This document shows positions 37,095-46,653 of a stretch of DNA of 64,000 nt, piece after piece. How positions within the stretch are numbered: the stretch's first letter is position 1; each line of letters begins with the position of its first letter. Below the pieces are notes generated by a model that saw only the letters and a list, made by a program, of their open reading frames with translations, was not told the origin of the DNA and ran no database searches. The DNA is from Dehalococcoidia bacterium. GTDB lineage: Bacteria; Chloroflexota; Dehalococcoidia; Bin125. The DNA is taken from positions 2,952,280-3,016,279 of the forward strand of contig OZ244861.1 of NCBI GenBank assembly GCA_965221065.1, read 5' to 3'. Position numbers and translations under genes: made by a program.

Positions 37095-39269
37095 TCACGG
37101 ATGCTTCGGGAGTCGGGCGGCGAGGAAGTCGGCGTAGTGCAGCGTCTGGTGGCTGGCGCCGCTGGAGTTCGCGCCGGCCCGGAGGTGAATGACACAGCCA
37201 GGATTATTGGTGATCAATGTGTCGCACCCTGTATCCGCAATGCAGCTGAGTTTGCGTTCGAGGATGCCTGCTCCCACCTCGGGCGCTGCGAGCGAAGTCA
37301 GACCGCCAAACCCGCAGCAGACATCCGGCTCGTCCAGCGGCAGCGCCGCCTCACCGGTCAGTCGTTCGACCAACGTGTCGATCCGCGCCCACGCGTCTCC
37401 TCGGTTCGATGTCTGACAAAACCGATGCGCGGTCCATGCCCCTACCTCGCCCTTGCTCAGACAGCCGTCGGGTAGCCGCCCCGGCCCCTCGAGCCAGTCG
37501 GCCAGGTCATGAACTCGATCACTGACGGCAGCCGCGCGATCTCGCCACTCAGCATCGTCGGCAAACAGGCGCGGCCAGTGGTCCTGCATTGAAATGACGC
37601 AGCTCGGCGCGGGCGTGACGATCTCACGCTCGCTGTCTTCGAGCGCCTCGATCGTATGCTTCGCCATTCGACGAGCGTTGTCCCAGTCGCCCGCGTCAAA
37701 GGCCGGAAGTCCGCAGCAGTGTTGCGACTCCGGCAACTGGACCGACGCGCCACCCGCTTCGATCAGCTTCGCAGTCGAGTCAACCGCAGTCGGCAAGAGT
37801 CGGTCGGCGAGGCACTGGGTAAACAGATCGACGGTCTGCCCAGCGGCGGGCGAATCGGCGAGCCGCGGTTCGGGGGCGCGACTCTCGACAAGCGACCGTC
37901 CCGGCCGCATGGGCAACGCCGGGATGGAGCGCCAGCGGAGCCTCCTGGGCAACGGTGCGTGTAAGTGATCACGCCGGACGAGACCAATGAGCCGCGCAAA
38001 CCCCGACCCGAGGGCAGCGAGGCCCATCATGTGATGGAACAGTCGCGGCCTGGCCCAGAGCCGCAGCGCGACGCGCTCCCAGAGCGGCGCATGGCCTGCC
38101 TGATGTGATCGGTGTCGAATCTCGAGGATTTGTTTGGGCAGCGGTATGTCGACCGGGCAGACCGTGTGGCAGGCGCCGCAGGAGACGCAGAGGCCCTGCG
38201 GCCCCGCGGCGTCTGCGATCCCGTGGTGAAAGGTCGTGTTCACCAACCCGATCGCGCCGGTGTAGATGTGGCCGAACGTGTGCCCGCCGACAACCTGGTA
38301 GGGCGGACACACGTTGGCGCAGGCCCCGCAGCGGATACAGCGCAGCGCGTCTGCAATGACATCGCTGTCGCGCATGGCGCGGCGGCCGTTATCGAGCAGG
38401 ATGATGTGCATCTCCTTGCCCGGCTGAGCTCCGGTGATGCACGTCGTGTACGTGCTCAAGGTCTGCGCAGTGGCTGAACGAGGCAGGAGTTGCAGCTGAC
38501 GCTCGGCATCGTTCCAGGACGGGATCAGCTTCTCGATCCCCGCGGTCACGAAATGCACGTCGGGCAGCGAAGTCGCGAGCCGCATGTTGCCCTCGTTGGT
38601 CACGACCATGATGCTTCCGGTCTCGGCGACCAGCGCATTCGCGCCGGTCAGACCGGCGCCGGCCGAGAGATAGTGCCGACGCAATCCATCGCGGGCACTG
38701 GCAACCATCGCCGGGATGTCGTCGGGATCAAACTCGCGTCCCAGCTCTTCCCCCAGAATCTCGGCGACGTACTGGCGCTTCTGGTGGATCGCCGGCATGA
38801 CGAGGTGAGACGGCCGCTCCTCGGCGAGCTGCAGCAGCCACTCCCCCAGATCGGTCTCGATCGCCGTAACGCCCCGTTGCTCAAGCTCGTGGTTGAGTTC
38901 GATCTCTTCCGACACCATCGACTTGCTCTTGACGACGAGGTCGACGCCGCGCGACTTGCAGACAGCCGCGATGTAGTTGACCGCTTCCTCCGCGGTGGAC
39001 AGCTCAATCACCGTTGCGCCGGCAGCCTCGGCATTGGCGCGAAACTCGGCGATGTAGTCGTCGATCCGCTCGAGGGTCGAATCCTTGACCGCCGCGAACT
39101 CCCGGCGCAGTTCGTCGAATGACCGCTCCGTGCGCTGCTCCAACCGTCGGACCTGCGCATCGCGGCTCTCCCGCCAGGACCGCTGGAAGGCCAGCAGTCG
39201 CGGCTTGAGATCGGGGTCGCCGACCGACCGCCGATAACGCTCCTTGAACGGCGCGGTCGACGCGCTCAT
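37095..39269 (-). CDS. lutB: LutB-LutA fusion (LUD domain, 2x4Fe-4S, two CCG domains)
   Basis: Start ATG 39269. VKSKSM, ETDLGE, CIRCGAC...CP, CVSCGAC...CP, then QHCCG and VCCGFGG. Confidence 0.88.
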   Translation of the reverse strand: MSASTAPFKERYRRSVGDPDLKPRLLAFQRSWRESRDAQVRRLEQRTERSFDELRREFAAVKDSTLERIDDYIAEFRANAEAAGATVIELSTAEEAVNYIAAVCKSRGVDLVVKSKSMVSEEIELNHELEQRGVTAIETDLGEWLLQLAEERPSHLVMPAIHQKRQYVAEILGEELGREFDPDDIPAMVASARDGLRRHYLSAGAGLTGANALVAETGSIMVVTNEGNMRLATSLPDVHFVTAGIEKLIPSWNDAERQLQLLPRSATAQTLSTYTTCITGAQPGKEMHIILLDNGRRAMRDSDVIADALRCIRCGACANVCPPYQVVGGHTFGHIYTGAIGLVNTTFHHGIADAAGPQGLCVSCGACHTVCPVDIPLPKQILEIRHRSHQAGHAPLWERVALRLWARPRLFHHMMGLAALGSGFARLIGLVRRDHLHAPLPRRLRWRSIPALPMRPGRSLVESRAPEPRLADSPAAGQTVDLFTQCLADRLLPTAVDSTAKLIEAGGASVQLPESQHCCGLPAFDAGDWDNARRMAKHTIEALEDSEREIVTPAPSCVISMQDHWPRLFADDAEWRDRAAAVSDRVHDLADWLEGPGRLPDGCLSKGEVGAWTAHRFCQTSNRGDAWARIDTLVERLTGEAALPLDEPDVCCGFGGLTSLAAPEVGAGILERKLSCIADTGCDTLITNNPGCVIHLRAGANSSGASHQTLHYADFLAARLPKHP

Positions 39270-39775
39270 GCGAGCACCGCCACCATAAGTCGGCTCGGAC
39301 CCTGCACACCGATGGTCAGCGAACGCTCGATGTCGGCGGTGCGCGACGGCCCGGTGACGAACGTGGCATAGGCGGCCGCGCGCGGCTGCTGCGCGAGCCA
39401 GCGGAAACCATCCGACAGTTCGTCGACGATATCCGACTCGGCGACGGCGACAATCAGATGCCTGGTCAGAAGCGAAACGGCCCGGTCGATCGGCGCCGGC
39501 TCGAGTAGTAGTACTGATCCAGTCTCCGCCACGGCCAGAGTTGCAACAGTGATTCCTACTGATCGATCGGCGATCGAACGCAATGGTTCGTTCTCGTCGG
39601 GCAACTCGCCTTGTTGTAGATGTGCATGGGCGGCCGGCGCGACAACCGGCGTTTCGTCGCTGAGCGATATAGCGTACTGCCAGATGTCGTCCCACGTTCG
39701 GCACGGCGCGAGTTCGCCCTGCGCGGCCCGCAGGCCGTCCGCGAACAGTGCGGTGCGCTCGCTGGTCGTCGTCAT
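39266..39775 (-). CDS. lutC: LutC/YkgG (LUD domain) protein
   Basis: AETGS, TGPSRTADIE...GVQGP. Confidence 0.88.
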   Translation of the reverse strand: MTTTSERTALFADGLRAAQGELAPCRTWDDIWQYAISLSDETPVVAPAAHAHLQQGELPDENEPLRSIADRSVGITVATLAVAETGSVLLLEPAPIDRAVSLLTRHLIVAVAESDIVDELSDGFRWLAQQPRAAAYATFVTGPSRTADIERSLTIGVQGPSRLMVAVLA

Positions 39776-41044: not shown

Positions 41045-41572
41045 TTAGGACCCGAGCAAGATCGTTCGGCCCTGCTGATACGCATCCAGCGCCCGTGCCT
41101 GCAGACCCTCAGTGCCGGCGCTCCCGATTGGATGATCGACGAGCGCGTAGCGAAAGTCCGGCATTCCGAGCGTCTTGGCGATCATCCGACCGGTCGGATC
41201 GAAGGGGTGAGTGCAGAGCACCAGACCCGGCTTACCGGTCTGCTCGAACGTGATCCCGTCGTGCACACTGCACGTTGAGCAGGAGCCTCAATCGCCCACC
41301 GCCGTGATCAGGAAATCGACGTCGTTGGCGATCCGTTCCAGGACCTGCGGATCGGCGATCCGACTGGCGTTGCGCTTGCCTGAGTCGATCACGATCTTGC
41401 AGCCTGCTTCACGTTCGAAGACCTCGGCGGTATAGCGCAACAATCTGTCGGCGTTGACCTTGCCGTTGGAGAACAGCCCGATGTTGAGGCCGTCCAGCCT
41501 GGTCAGGCGAGGCGCGGCCGTGTAGCCCGTCGGCGTTGGCTCGCCCGTTGGGTCCAACAATTCCAGTGCCAT
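41045..41572 (-). CDS. UGSC-family selenoprotein (175 aa, Sec at the UGA 41288-41290)
   Basis: ATG 41572 reads ...ITAVGD-tga-GSCSTCSVHDG...HPIG... in one frame to the stop at 41045, joining two ORF-track fragments. Confidence 0.88.
41240..41287 (-). promoter_or_regulatory. Candidate bacterial SECIS hairpin
   Basis: CGUGCA-GUG-UGCACG stem-loop starts 13 nt after the UGA. CUGCUC (41282-41277) can pair with GAGCAG (41245-41240). Confidence 0.55.
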
Positions 41573-41592
41573 GAACGTCTCCGATATCAGGC

Positions 41593-42657
41593 TCAGCAGT
41601 CGAGGCAGACGCCGATCGCCGTGGTTTGGTAGATCGAGTTGCGGCCTCGACTCCACGACGGCAGGAAAGCGGAGTGTCCTCCGGCCTCGCCGCCCGCGAC
41701 GACGAGCAGAATGTCGTCCGGGCTGCGTCCGCGATGGAAGCGCCCCAACCTGCGATCGTGGCCGCGCTCGCCCTCGGAGAGACCGTCTTGGTCGAGTCCG
41801 GGCGGCCACTTGCCGTTGCTCAGCATGTCGTCTGGATCCCGGCTGGCTTGCTCGAAGAGATATGCCTGCACATCCCGCTTGGACATCCCGCCCGACGCAG
41901 CGATCTGCGCATGCTCCGGCGACATCACCACCAGCGACTGGCCATCGGTCAGCGCTCCCAGCGAGCCCATGGCGTCGGCGAACGTGTCGAGCAGGCGCTC
42001 CGGGTCGCTGGTGTAATGATTCTCGACGTTGTAGAAACCGGACGCGGCGAAAACGGTCGCCGTCGAAACCTCCGGCGGGAAGCCCAACGACTCGTGCAGC
42101 GGCTCCCAGGGACTGTTGAGGATGTTCTCCGAGATGCAGCAGGAGTACTTGCCCGGCCAGCCGGTGGTCGAGCGATCGGAGATGCCCGGAATCATCTGGA
42201 AGATGTTCATGATCACCAGCCGGATCGCACGTCCGATCGTCGCATTGGCGCGATAGCCGGGTCCGAACACGTTGACGCTGGCGTTCATCCCGATCTCGTC
42301 GCGGATATCGCCCGAGACGATCACGACCGGTGCCGAACCGCCGGTGCTGGCCGTCGATCCGTGGAAGTTGTACGCGTCCTCGTTCAGCCCCTCGAGCGCA
42401 GCGAGCACGGTCGGGAAGTACTGCGGTAGACAACCCGCCATCACCGCATTGACAGCGGCCGACTGCACGCTGCATTCCCGTCCGGTTGCCGGGTGACGGG
42501 CGACGATCTCCTCAGGCGGCCGTCCGGCCGCCATGAGGAAGCGCTCGACCCGCTCGCGTACCGGCGGGACAACCGGCAAGCCGTCGGTCCAGCCCTGTTC
42601 ATAGCAATAGTCGATGGCGGAGAGTTCGTCGTTGAGGATGTGAGTCTCGGTGGTCAT
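41593..42657 (-). CDS. Uncharacterised UGSC-associated protein with C-terminal CxxC
   Basis: GWTDGLPVVPP, NAVMAGC, RANATIGRA, ISEN...PW, SPEHA; ends GVCLDC. Confidence 0.85.
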   Translation of the reverse strand: MTTETHILNDELSAIDYCYEQGWTDGLPVVPPVRERVERFLMAAGRPPEEIVARHPATGRECSVQSAAVNAVMAGCLPQYFPTVLAALEGLNEDAYNFHGSTASTGGSAPVVIVSGDIRDEIGMNASVNVFGPGYRANATIGRAIRLVIMNIFQMIPGISDRSTTGWPGKYSCCISENILNSPWEPLHESLGFPPEVSTATVFAASGFYNVENHYTSDPERLLDTFADAMGSLGALTDGQSLVVMSPEHAQIAASGGMSKRDVQAYLFEQASRDPDDMLSNGKWPPGLDQDGLSEGERGHDRRLGRFHRGRSPDDILLVVAGGEAGGHSAFLPSWSRGRNSIYQTTAIGVCLDC

Positions 42658-44454: not shown

Positions 44455-45929
44455 GCCATGTGATTGTCGTCGGAGCCGGCAACGCCGCCCTCTGCGCTGC
44501 GCTCGCGGCCCGAGAACACGGAGCCGACGTGACGGTCGTCGAGAAGGCGCCGGAGGGCGAGCGCGGCGGCAACACCTACTTCACCGGCGGCGGCTTCCGC
44601 TTCCCCTACGACGGCATGGACGACATCCTGCGCATCATCCCCGACCTGAGCGACGCGGAGATCGAGCGAGTCGACGTCGGCGCCTACCCGAGCGCGCAGT
44701 TCCGAGACGACTTGGCGCGGGTGACCGATGGCCTGATTGACGATGGCATGGCCTCGGCTCTCGTTCGCGAGGCCGCGCCGACCATCGAATGGCTCCACCG
44801 TCAAGGCGTCAAGTTCACCCTGATGACAGGACGGCAGGCGAACGACGTCGACGGCAAGCTGGTCTTCTACGGCGGACTGACGGTCGAGGCGGTCGGCGCA
44901 GGCAAGGGACTGTCGGACCAGGAGTTCGCTGCCGCCGAGCGGGTCGGCGTTGACATCCGCTACGACGCAAAGGTCGTGAACCTGCTCCGCGACGGGCGCC
45001 GCGTTCGCGGCGTCGAGCTCTGGACCGAGGACGACGTTGAAGAGCTCGAGGCGGACGCAGTTGTCCTGGCGGCCGGTGGGTTTGAAGCGAACATCGAGAT
45101 GCGCACCCGTTACCTCGGTCCCGGCTGGGACATGGCTAAGGTGCGCGGATCCCGGTTCAACACGGGCGACGCCATCCAGGCTGCGATCGACGCCGGCGCG
45201 CAACCCTTCGGTAACTGGTCCGGCGCGCACGCGGTTGCCTGGGATCTGAATGCGCCACCCACCGGCAACCGGATCGTCGCCGATCTCTACCAGAAGCACT
45301 CATACCCGTATGGGTTGATCGTCAATCTCGACGGTGAGCGCTTCGTCGACGAAGGCGCCGACATCCGCAACTACACCTACGCCAAGTACGGCCGCGCCAT
45401 CCTCGCGCAGCCCGAGCGGGCGGCGTTCCAACTCTTCGACCAGCGCACCGCGCATCTGCTGCGCGACGAATACCACGTCCGACAGGTGACCATGGCCCAG
45501 GCCGACACCATCGCAGATCTCGCCGAGTCGCTCGGTGTCGATGCCGACGGCCTGCAGCGGACGATCGACGACTACAACAGGTCCTGTCCCGAGCACGGAA
45601 TCGACGGCTTCAATCCGTCAACCCTGGACGGTGTCGGAACACGAGGTGTCAACCCACCGAAATCGAATTGGGCGTTGCCCTTCGATTCCCCGCCCTACCT
45701 CGGCTACGCGGTGACCTGCGGCATCACGTTCACGTTCGGCGGCCTCAAGATCGATCCTCGCACCGCACAGGTCTTGGACACCGAGGATCGTCCAATGGCC
45801 GGTCTCTACGCCGCCGGAGAGCTGGTCGGCGGATTGTTCTACAACAACTACGCCGGGGGCTCCGGTCTCATGGCTGGCAGTGTCTTTGGACGAATCGCGG
45901 GACGGAGCGCCGCCGTTGAACGCGTCTGA
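44451..45929 (+). CDS. tcuA: FAD-dependent tricarballylate dehydrogenase TcuA-like flavoprotein
   Basis: VVGAGNAA, RGGNTYFT, AAGGFEAN, GITFTFGG, GELVGGLFY. Confidence 0.8.
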   Translation: MSHVIVVGAGNAALCAALAAREHGADVTVVEKAPEGERGGNTYFTGGGFRFPYDGMDDILRIIPDLSDAEIERVDVGAYPSAQFRDDLARVTDGLIDDGMASALVREAAPTIEWLHRQGVKFTLMTGRQANDVDGKLVFYGGLTVEAVGAGKGLSDQEFAAAERVGVDIRYDAKVVNLLRDGRRVRGVELWTEDDVEELEADAVVLAAGGFEANIEMRTRYLGPGWDMAKVRGSRFNTGDAIQAAIDAGAQPFGNWSGAHAVAWDLNAPPTGNRIVADLYQKHSYPYGLIVNLDGERFVDEGADIRNYTYAKYGRAILAQPERAAFQLFDQRTAHLLRDEYHVRQVTMAQADTIADLAESLGVDADGLQRTIDDYNRSCPEHGIDGFNPSTLDGVGTRGVNPPKSNWALPFDSPPYLGYAVTCGITFTFGGLKIDPRTAQVLDTEDRPMAGLYAAGELVGGLFYNNYAGGSGLMAGSVFGRIAGRSAAVERV

Positions 45930-46653
45930 GCGAGGTGAGGCACTGCTGCGTGAAATCCTGGACTCGTCCGAAGTGCTGATGACGCCGCAGTTGCGAAAGA
46001 TCGCACGACGAGAGGCCAAGGAGCTGAAGTCGGCGTCCGGCGAAGACGTGCTCGAACTCTGCAACCTGCTGATCGAACACGGCGGAAGCGGCCGCGTGCG
46101 ACGCCCGGAACACGGTCCGGCGTACGAGACTCGCATGGTGGCCTTCAACCTCGTATCAATGCACCGCCCAGCATTCGCGCTGTTGAACTGGCGAGAACTC
46201 GAGCGGCTGGGGCGCACCCTGGACGGCTGGGCCTCAGTCGATCACTTCGCCCGCAGACTCAGCGGTCCGGCCTGGCAACGCGGTCAGATCACCGACGCGA
46301 GAGTCCGTCGCTGGGCGACGTCATCCGACTTCTGGTGGCGACGCGCAGGGCTCGTCTCCACCATCGCTCTCAATGAGCGTCACCTCGGCAAGGGCGACGC
46401 CGCGCGGACCTTGGCAATCTGCGAGTTCTTCGTCGACGACCGCGCGGAACTGCACGTCAAGGCCCTGAGCTGGGCCTTGCGCGAGTTGGCAATCCGAGAC
46501 CCGGACGCCGTCATCGAGTACATCATCGACCGCGAAGATCGCCTCGCCCCAAGGGTGCTCCGCGAGGTGCGAAACAAGATCGAGACCGGTCACAAAATGG
46601 CCAGGCCTTCAGAAGCCATGCAACGCCGGATGCGTGAGCGTCGCCCAGACTGA
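45916..46653 (+). CDS. DNA alkylation repair (AlkD-like HEAT-repeat) protein
   Basis: WASVDHF, FWWRRAG, KALSWALREL, RVLREVRNK. TTG start after GGAG is tentative. Confidence 0.8.
   Translation: MNASERGEALLREILDSSEVLMTPQLRKIARREAKELKSASGEDVLELCNLLIEHGGSGRVRRPEHGPAYETRMVAFNLVSMHRPAFALLNWRELERLGRTLDGWASVDHFARRLSGPAWQRGQITDARVRRWATSSDFWWRRAGLVSTIALNERHLGKGDAARTLAICEFFVDDRAELHVKALSWALRELAIRDPDAVIEYIIDREDRLAPRVLREVRNKIETGHKMARPSEAMQRRMRERRPD

Follow-up and report, generated by a model that had tools for sequence, protein, structure and literature searches.

A UGSC-family selenoprotein and its obligate partner from an undescribed protein family, probably parts of one redox enzyme, in a Dehalococcoidia bacterium

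The window analysed here is a stretch of 64,000 nucleotides (nt) from a Dehalococcoidia bacterium of the Chloroflexota (assembly GCA_965221065.1, contig OZ244861.1, positions 2,952,280 to 3,016,279). On its minus strand lie two neighbouring genes, the downstream one encoding a small selenoprotein of the UGSC family and the upstream one a larger protein, referred to below as the partner. Comparison with related loci shows that an in-frame UGA of the small gene is decoded as selenocysteine (Sec), at residue 95, that the pairing of UGSC with the partner is obligate, and that the redox modules found on the partner are interchangeable. Since UGSC and partner are always adjacent or fused, the pair is probably one redox enzyme. 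The selenoprotein family is already known; what is new is the obligate two-part system, with its undescribed partner family and its interchangeable redox modules.

Translation table 11 breaks the small gene at the TGA into two open reading frames (ORFs; 41288.. and 41045..41266). Reading the TGA as U gives a single frame of 175 residues, ...ITAVGD-U-GSCSTCSVHDGITFEQ... (in a longer printed stretch, ...DFLITAVGD-U-GSCSTCSVHDGITFEQTGKP...), and there is exactly one in-frame TGA from the ATG at 41572 to the TAA at 41047-41045. A first-pass annotation of this DNA had described such a split, with one frame running through a single TGA to give GD-U-GSCSTC, and a gene 20 nt upstream with a WTDGLP motif and a CLDC end. 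Both descriptions hold, the upstream gene being 354 codons long with its stop 20 nt before the ATG. In most close relatives the spacing between the two genes is 20-62 nt. A 395-residue ORF that lies in the UGSC frame and overlaps the partner gene was rejected as an artefact of high G+C content, and a consensus scan for a promoter and a terminator found none. The features of the locus are the following.

42657-41593, minus strand: partner gene, 354 residues, with a GWTDGLP motif and the C-terminus ...TTAIGVCLDC (from the ORF list)
42430-42432, minus strand: codon of partner Cys76 (NAVMAGC), near-invariant
42136-42141, minus strand: codons of partner Cys173-Cys174 (KYSCCISE), with the near-invariant Glu177 afterwards
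41596-41607, minus strand: codons of the partner tail C351-L-D-C354, a clade-specific addition
41573-41592, minus strand: intergenic spacer of 20 nt between the TGA stop of the partner and the ATG at 41572
41582-41579, minus strand: GGAG in the spacer, 6 nt ahead of the ATG (read directly)
41572-41045, minus strand: gene of the UGSC-family selenoprotein, 175 residues plus the TAA stop at 41047-41045 (translated with TGA as U)
41290-41288, minus strand: Sec95 codon, UGA (from TGA in 80 of 80 related loci, Cys in TGA-free homologues and the Sec machinery)
41281-41279, minus strand: codon of C98 of the UGSC protein
41274-41260, minus strand: putative apical hairpin of a Sec insertion sequence (SECIS), CGUGCA-GUG-UGCACG (from pairing, frozen codons and covariation)
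41272-41270, minus strand: codon of C101 of the UGSC protein

To judge how the UGA is read, we took 80 related loci from one-genome-per-species contigs; they range over Chloroflexota, Alpha- and Gammaproteobacteria and Entotheonella. The TGA is kept at the same codon in all 80, with the in-frame continuation GSCSTCS[VL]HD, and identity to the UGSC protein of the window across the TGA runs from 94% down to 47% (27 aligned relatives). All four UGSC paralogues of this genome carry a single TGA, at that codon, and a TGA is present in 17 of 19 UGSC matches in a sample of the phylum. The first-pass annotation had proposed two checks, for homologues with Cys at the UGA position and for the Sec machinery, and both gave a clear answer. 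Cys stands at the position in 11 of 13 TGA-free homologues, made up of nine full-length fused forms out of 11 (CxxC in seven of these nine) and both stand-alone forms (P0272, P0273). The genome (3.14 Mb, one contig) holds selA (537.8 bits), selB (327 bits, or 351 including a C-terminal stretch), selD (350 bits, with an in-frame TGA of its own) and tRNA-Sec (70.2 bits; ARAGORN tRNA-SeC with anticodon TCA), all above their curated cut-offs. Incidentally, the selD match (L010, G000:C1:3105740-3106681, minus strand) suggests that selenophosphate synthetase is itself probably a selenoprotein here.

A hairpin at a SECIS-like distance after the UGA had also been claimed, and this is borne out by its pairing, its frozen codons and its covariation. 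The hairpin has a stem of six base pairs and a GUN loop, lies 14-28 nt downstream of the UGA with the loop G 22 nt from the U of the UGA, and doubles as coding sequence for T100-C101-S102-V103-H104-D105. It is found at the same place in all four UGSC paralogues of this genome. As a single sequence, the 68-nt fold is unremarkable (z -1.23, with 22 of 200 shuffles equally good), and the 19-nt hairpin alone gives -7.4 kcal/mol (z -1.89). In an alignment of 69 distinct orthologous sequences, C19-G-U-G-C-A / G-U-N / U-G-C-A-Y-G33 is paired in 100% of cells. Across 80 distinct sequences, codon entropy is zero at +5 (ACG), +6 (TGC) and +7 (AGT), which make up the 5' arm and the loop; at other invariant Thr, Ser and Cys positions the codon entropy is 0.5-1.35 bits (Thr 1.30-1.35, Ser 1.0-1.2), and every invariant degenerate position other than these three codons shows synonymous variation.

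Covariation was measured in 12 sequences chosen by hand, namely the window, three of the 68 other orthologues, two of the three other paralogues of this genome and six genes of the phylum sample; a gene with the hairpin shifted by 2 nt (L108), five fused U-S-T-C genes with a different hairpin and the unpublished genome G038 were excluded. In this set, compensatory double changes occur in three of the six pairs and pairing holds in 98.6% of cells, a result matched by only 0-1 of 500 shuffles. Examples come from the more diverged UGSC genes: a C-G pair is swapped to G-C in one paralogue of this genome and in G044, and in the G013 hairpin G-C stands for U-A and C-G for G-C. The longer lower stem predicted from the one sequence was rejected: of the 69 sequences, 17 cannot form pair 11-53 and 23 cannot form pair 14-50, and its covariation is not above that of shuffles. 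An Rfam search gave no SECIS family match, only two chance matches to miRNAs. The comparative data identify the 6-bp hairpin 3' of the UGA as the SECIS element, and together with the conservation of the TGA, the hairpins of the four paralogues and the presence of selA, selB, selD and tRNA-Sec, they lead us to conclude that the UGA is read as Sec. Like the SECIS of the E. coli fdhF type, this is an in-gene hairpin just past the UGA, with an apical G and U about 20 nt away; unlike it, the conserved part is very short, consisting of the stem and a 3-nt loop only. A subtype of fused UGSC-partner genes (L126, L128-L131; G122, G027, G001, G140, G013) has the motif GVGH-U-S-T-C and a different, longer hairpin of about 9+3 base pairs, whose loop, GGUC or GGUU, lies about 20 nt past the UGA.

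The small protein matches PF24696, the UGSC family, with an E-value of 8.6e-47 and 159.9 bits (cut-off 25), residues 4-172 of 175 aligning with profile positions 1-170 of 172. It carries the family motif U-G-S-C (GD-U-GSC), with the UGA at the usual position of the family. The full-length match and the conserved UGA confirm its earlier assignment as a UGSC-family selenoprotein. Scored with C in place of U, it reached 119.4 bits against NF041046 ('UGSC family (seleno)protein'), below the equivalog cut-off of 125; this is a near miss, and Pfam membership is unaffected by it. Judged by these profiles, the small protein is a member of a known family, and nothing in the protein itself differs from that family. 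Passages in four papers treat the UGSC-containing protein as a predicted selenoprotein, major in aquatic metagenomes, to which no function has been assigned, and guess that it is thioredoxin-like (PMC2398784, PMC1976440, PMC9312934, PMC13188914). Passages of the 2008 GOS ocean survey paper count 255 Sec against 21 Cys forms, rank the family fifth of 51 and mention one 'UGSC/Unknown_1' fusion (PMC2398784), of which Unknown_1 may be the present partner. Apart from that sentence on the fusion, the passages found in the literature on UGSC, PF24696 and NF041046 yielded no paper on an activity or a partner gene, in agreement with the first-pass statement that no activity had been demonstrated.

In the orthologous UGSC group, C58 and C120 are near-invariant besides U95, C98 and C101 (27 aligned relatives). 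The motif had been described as UxxC plus a second Cys three residues on; the residues UGSCSTC are indeed present, but outside the orthologues C101 is not conserved: the Cys forms, and two paralogues in this genome, have W, A or G there. Its codon lies inside the SECIS stem and changes along with its pairing partner, so the invariance of C101 among orthologues may be a constraint on the RNA. This second Cys is probably an RNA-imposed feature, the core motif being UxxC. A profile search of the PDB with UGSC gave only chance matches (E of at least 0.03, to aldehyde dehydrogenases), and the thioredoxin-type domains of Pfam gave no match at an E-value of 10. As UGSC is without significant profile similarity to the thioredoxin fold, 'thioredoxin-like' can be meant as a functional analogy only.

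The partner gene lies immediately upstream of the UGSC gene, on the same strand, in 76 of the 80 loci, the remaining four being cut by a contig end. The two thus adjoin in 76 of 76 testable loci, with one intervening gene in two loci. Each of the four UGSC paralogues of this genome touches at least one of its six partner paralogues, in either gene order. In the phylum sample of 151 genomes, UGSC is present in 13 and the partner in 16, and all 13 UGSC genomes have the partner; these counts include the unpublished genome G038, without which they are 12 and 15 of 150. Co-occurrence of the two genes elsewhere, whose absence the first pass had named as a refutation, is therefore found among the testable loci, the paralogues and the sampled genomes alike. 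Moreover, the UGSC domain is present in 38 of 62 partner-family members of at least 400 residues and, by profile search, can stand at either end of the fused partner. In fused Sec forms, gene calls are cut at the Sec codon or start after it; the Cys forms run through. At one further locus (L063:3923-5458) the partner frame seems to enter the UGSC frame without a stop, the partner match ending at residue 322, which may be a natural fusion or an assembly frameshift.

Other redox domains occupy the place of UGSC in sister proteins. Among the same 62 members, four have a Redoxin/AhpC-TSA domain, two FeThRed_B, two Thioredoxin_8 and one Pyr_redox_2. The Redoxin/AhpC-TSA domain is N-terminal, the domain of the FTR catalytic chain (FTR-B) keeps CPC/CPC/CHC, and the C-terminal flavoprotein domain resembling thioredoxin reductase (TrxR) keeps CAVC. 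An N-terminal strand-D-CxxC domain that is missed by Pfam occurs in further members and in one partner paralogue of this genome, and the structural neighbours in the Atlas of a homologue 66% identical to the partner show the same fusions. Both of the conserved partner cysteines described below are kept in all six non-UGSC redox fusions that could be placed. Fusions of a thioredoxin-like domain and a partner (P0243, P0270, P0221, L111) also have in common a conserved motif with one Cys, PGCG[AS]+, located in the linker some 40-60 residues ahead of the GWTDGLP-type motif.

The partner has no Pfam match at E-values up to 10 and no NCBIfam match at E-values up to 0.01, and a sequence-profile search of the PDB gave only a chance match (E 2.3) to a designed protein. 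The Atlas model of the 66%-identical homologue (P0028) is confident (pTM 0.92) and resembles its own family only, its neighbours carrying no family over the aligned part. By these searches the partner belongs to an undescribed family, with no curated family and no relative of solved structure. The family is large, with at least 7971 relatives at an E-value of 0.001 or below (8000 candidates scored), or 5043 representatives at 50% clustering. In 69 stand-alone representatives, D25, P28, R136 and R143 are invariant, position 177 is Glu in 99%, and Cys is found in 96% at position 76 and in 94% at position 174; in tandem-duplicated forms the second Cys is at 173 rather than 174. Both cysteines occur together in 127 of 147 representatives.

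These conserved cysteines (C76, C174) are internal, not in the C-terminal tail. Of 76 related loci, 51 have a tail of the CLDC type; the 25 without it are mostly from Alphaproteobacteria of the Reyranella type and keep the identical U-G-S-C-S-T-C motif. A C-terminal CxxC is found in about 6% of the 69 stand-alone representatives, and there is none in the 29 fused forms with tails or linkers inspected. The first-pass proposal that the terminal dithiol of the partner recycles the Sec/Cys site does not agree with this distribution. By these counts the CLDC tail cannot be the general recycling site; in this clade, it may act as a local shuttle between the two centres.

From these comparisons we infer the direction of electron flow, the roles of the Cys pair and the tail, and anything said of the substrate. 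In the reading that we favour, with a probability of roughly 55%, the partner is the substrate-handling subunit, with its near-invariant Cys pair, and UGSC is a dedicated selenol/thiol redox module. The two genes would form one operon for a two-part thiol/selenol oxidoreductase. SelB and tRNA-Sec, guided by the small SECIS hairpin, would read the UGA as Sec95, and the redox centre U95-G-S-C98 would be placed after a beta-strand, as the sequence pattern suggests. The 354-residue partner would handle the substrate by means of D25, R136, R143, E177 and usually the Cys pair C76 and C173/C174; its two invariant Arg hint that the substrate is small and anionic or polar. UGSC would serve as a private electron-relay module, in the role that the thioredoxin-like domain has in sister proteins, a proposal based on the replacement of UGSC by generic redox domains with both partner Cys kept. 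The selenol would attack a disulfide or an oxidised Cys of the large subunit, C98 would resolve the selenenyl-sulfide, and a general cellular reductant would re-reduce UGSC. Of the two-subunit reductase claimed in the first pass, the conserved functional pair is retained but the recycling by a terminal dithiol is not; fusion partners of the thioredoxin-fold, FTR-B and TrxR-like kinds suggest instead that electrons flow towards the large protein.

Several observations weigh against this reading. Cys is absent at one of the two partner columns in 20 of 147 representatives, and three of the six partner paralogues of this genome are without one or both conserved Cys while keeping D25, R136, R143 and E177; one Cys-less copy carries a fused CxxC domain of its own. 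Such copies fit better with the Sec or Cys of the module itself acting on a bound substrate than with reduction of a partner disulfide. Three sampled genomes have a partner without UGSC, G007, G051 (only weak partial matches) and G104, and no redox domain was seen among the ORFs beside the G007 and G104 partners in the stretches read, Pfam having been run on three G104 ORFs only. Finally, comparison of UGSC with four Redoxin domains gave an hhalign probability of 0.4%, though the CxxC and UxxC motifs line up. One paralogous locus of this genome, locus C (L118, G000:C1:402000-415000), brings many of these elements together on one strand, in the order thioredoxin-TPR, CxxC-domain-partner fusion, UGSC (Sec), partner, partner, MFS and acyl-CoA dehydrogenase. 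Of its partner copies, the fusion is without both conserved Cys, the next has C76 only and the last has neither Cys.

The explanation that would dissolve the system altogether is that the TGA is a real stop or marks a broken gene, leaving two short unrelated ORFs and no selenoprotein. Table 11 does split the frame, the single-sequence fold is not significant and, among the sequencing runs listed, no RNA run contains the stretch. We nonetheless give this explanation virtually no credence, as it is contradicted by the comparative data already in hand: a TGA kept by all 80 loci while protein identity across it runs at 47-94%, the four paralogues each with one TGA at that codon, Cys at the position in TGA-free homologues, the conserved and covarying hairpin, and the complete Sec machinery. 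A tentative possibility, on the unlikely side, is a composite active site, in which the large protein would bind and position a small substrate and Sec95 would be the catalytic nucleophile, as in GrdB/PrdB; C98 would resolve the adduct, and C76/C174, the CLDC tail (in this clade) or an outside thioredoxin would recycle the selenenyl-sulfide. This puts the direction taken by the first-pass annotation in general form. It would account for the Cys-less partner paralogues, which keep the non-Cys invariants and still lie beside UGSC or a fused CxxC domain. The preference for Sec over Cys, typical of a catalytic nucleophile, also points this way (255 versus 21 in the GOS passage of PMC2398784; TGA in 17 of 19 phylum-sample matches), as does the UxxC motif common to UGSC and PrdB/GrdB (passages of PMC2398784; PrdB-like genes of this genome). 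Set against this, generic disulfide-reductase modules (TrxR-like, FTR-B, Redoxin) replace UGSC in sister proteins, neither 25 of the 76 loci nor any inspected fused form has the CxxC tail, and homology to PrdB/GrdB is undetectable (hhalign 0.2%; no PF07355 match at an E-value of 10). Direct attack on a small substrate is not known for TrxR-like, FTR-B or Redoxin modules.

A non-redox role, in which the Sec/Cys centres would bind or hand over a metal, sulfur or selenium, as a relay, a chaperone or an Fe-S-type site of U-x2-C-x2-C plus C120, appears quite improbable. U-x2-C-x2-C plus further Cys resembles a cluster- or metal-binding pattern, and the orthologues do have U95-x2-C98-x2-C101 with near-invariant C120 and C58. 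Metal-binding selenoproteins are discussed in passages of a review (PMC13188914). However, Cys forms and two of the paralogues here have W, A or G in place of C101, whose codon belongs to the SECIS stem and covaries with its pairing partner, and every alternative module found in the fusions is a disulfide reductase. With C101 not conserved outside the orthologues, the Fe-S-type reading of U-x2-C-x2-C was dropped.

Trx-MsrA-MsrB fusions, AhpF-AhpC and TlpA-type reductases couple a thioredoxin-fold module to a client reductase. As in those systems, a small CxxC/UxxC module is coupled here, as a neighbouring gene or a fused domain, to a larger enzyme that has conserved Cys, and sister proteins of the partner carry Redoxin/AhpC-TSA, FTR-B and TrxR-like domains; unlike them, UGSC uses Sec, has no significant thioredoxin-fold profile similarity and serves a client family that is undescribed. 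GrdB and PrdB, with the proproteins GrdE and PrdA, are another precedent, in which a UxxC selenoprotein is encoded alongside a larger substrate-binding polypeptide. The likeness lies in a UxxC selenoprotein beside a second, larger polypeptide; however, homology is not detectable, the partner has no match of the Gly_reductase type, and UGSC is much smaller, at 175 residues. Homology of UGSC to PrdB/GrdB was rejected on the absence of a PF07355 match at an E-value of 10 and on an hhalign probability of 0.2% against the four PrdB-like proteins of this genome. The genes of the latter (PrdB/GRDB-like, PF07355, model positions 205-345) are at L101:1438-2682(+), L102:1246-2571(+), L103:1387-2715(+) and L104:790-1956(-). 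Each has a TGA in ...LTPV-U-P-x-C-[TS]..., runs on in frame to ...WVPFPLGRPLG... and carries a hairpin directly 3' of the UGA; all four probably encode additional selenoproteins, of 389-443 residues.

C-terminal redox tails are known from the Cys pair of the class Ia ribonucleotide reductase R1 and from the GCUG of mammalian thioredoxin reductase. The terminal CxxC-like pair of the partner could likewise carry electrons between an outside reductant and an internal site; unlike those tails, it lies only about six residues past the last conserved strand and is clade-specific (51 of 76 loci). Compared with the UGSC family as named by Zhang and Gladyshev, the protein is the same, and what is added here is the obligate pairing with a partner, the anatomy of the SECIS and the interchange of redox modules.

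The gene neighbourhood offers leads only as to the substrate, since the related loci are not independent and the neighbouring families are very large. The first-pass annotation had suggested a substrate related to the divergent operon of MFS and tcuA-like genes. Synteny of the MFS, TcuA-like, acyl-CoA dehydrogenase and LUD genes is limited to relatives of at least 65% identity, and the proposed link extends no further than these close relatives. The neighbours seen repeatedly at 39 more distant loci encode TctC receptors (14 loci), luciferase-like monooxygenases (9) and MFS transporters (5). A luciferase-like monooxygenase also flanks paralogous locus B of this genome and the G104 partner, and the MFS and acyl-CoA dehydrogenase genes that flank the locus of the window recur at locus C. 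The luciferase-like monooxygenase genes (PF00296) include L078:5548-6765, L116:85-939, L119:8499-9494 and L119:3042-3881, with two copies at locus B, and an NMT1-like binding protein also comes after the G104 partner that has no UGSC.

Two further observations concern the surroundings of the pair in the window. Positions 37095-39775 (minus strand) encode a LUD-domain/4Fe-4S/CCG fusion and a LutC-like LUD protein, of the lactate-utilisation type, just past the convergent acyl-CoA dehydrogenase gene and syntenic in 33 of the 80 related loci. Positions 45880-46653 (plus strand) encode a DNA alkylation repair enzyme (PF08713), which follows the TcuA-like FAD protein and, as listed among the ORFs, overlaps its end by about 50 nt.

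For about twenty years, UGSC has been listed among the most abundant selenoprotein families of aquatic metagenomes without a function. The obligate partner, the frequent fusion and the replacement of the module turn this orphan into a testable two-protein system, for which Reyranella massiliensis 521 (L086) is a cultivable carrier of the pair, and the work defines a large protein family that is without a Pfam model. The hairpin illustrates cleanly how a SECIS can fix three codons and thereby impose an apparently 'conserved' Cys on the protein. A bolder proposal, which we consider unlikely, is that the pair represents a new class of Sec-dependent substrate reductase, in which the selenol would reach the Asp/Arg/Arg/Glu pocket of the partner and attack a small anionic compound. 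If true, this would be a third system of the glycine/proline reductase kind, unrelated to the others in sequence and widespread in aerobic aquatic bacteria, and the partner family, with its approximately 5000 clusters, would be a new enzyme superfamily driven by Sec, thioredoxin-like, ferredoxin- or NADPH-linked modules.

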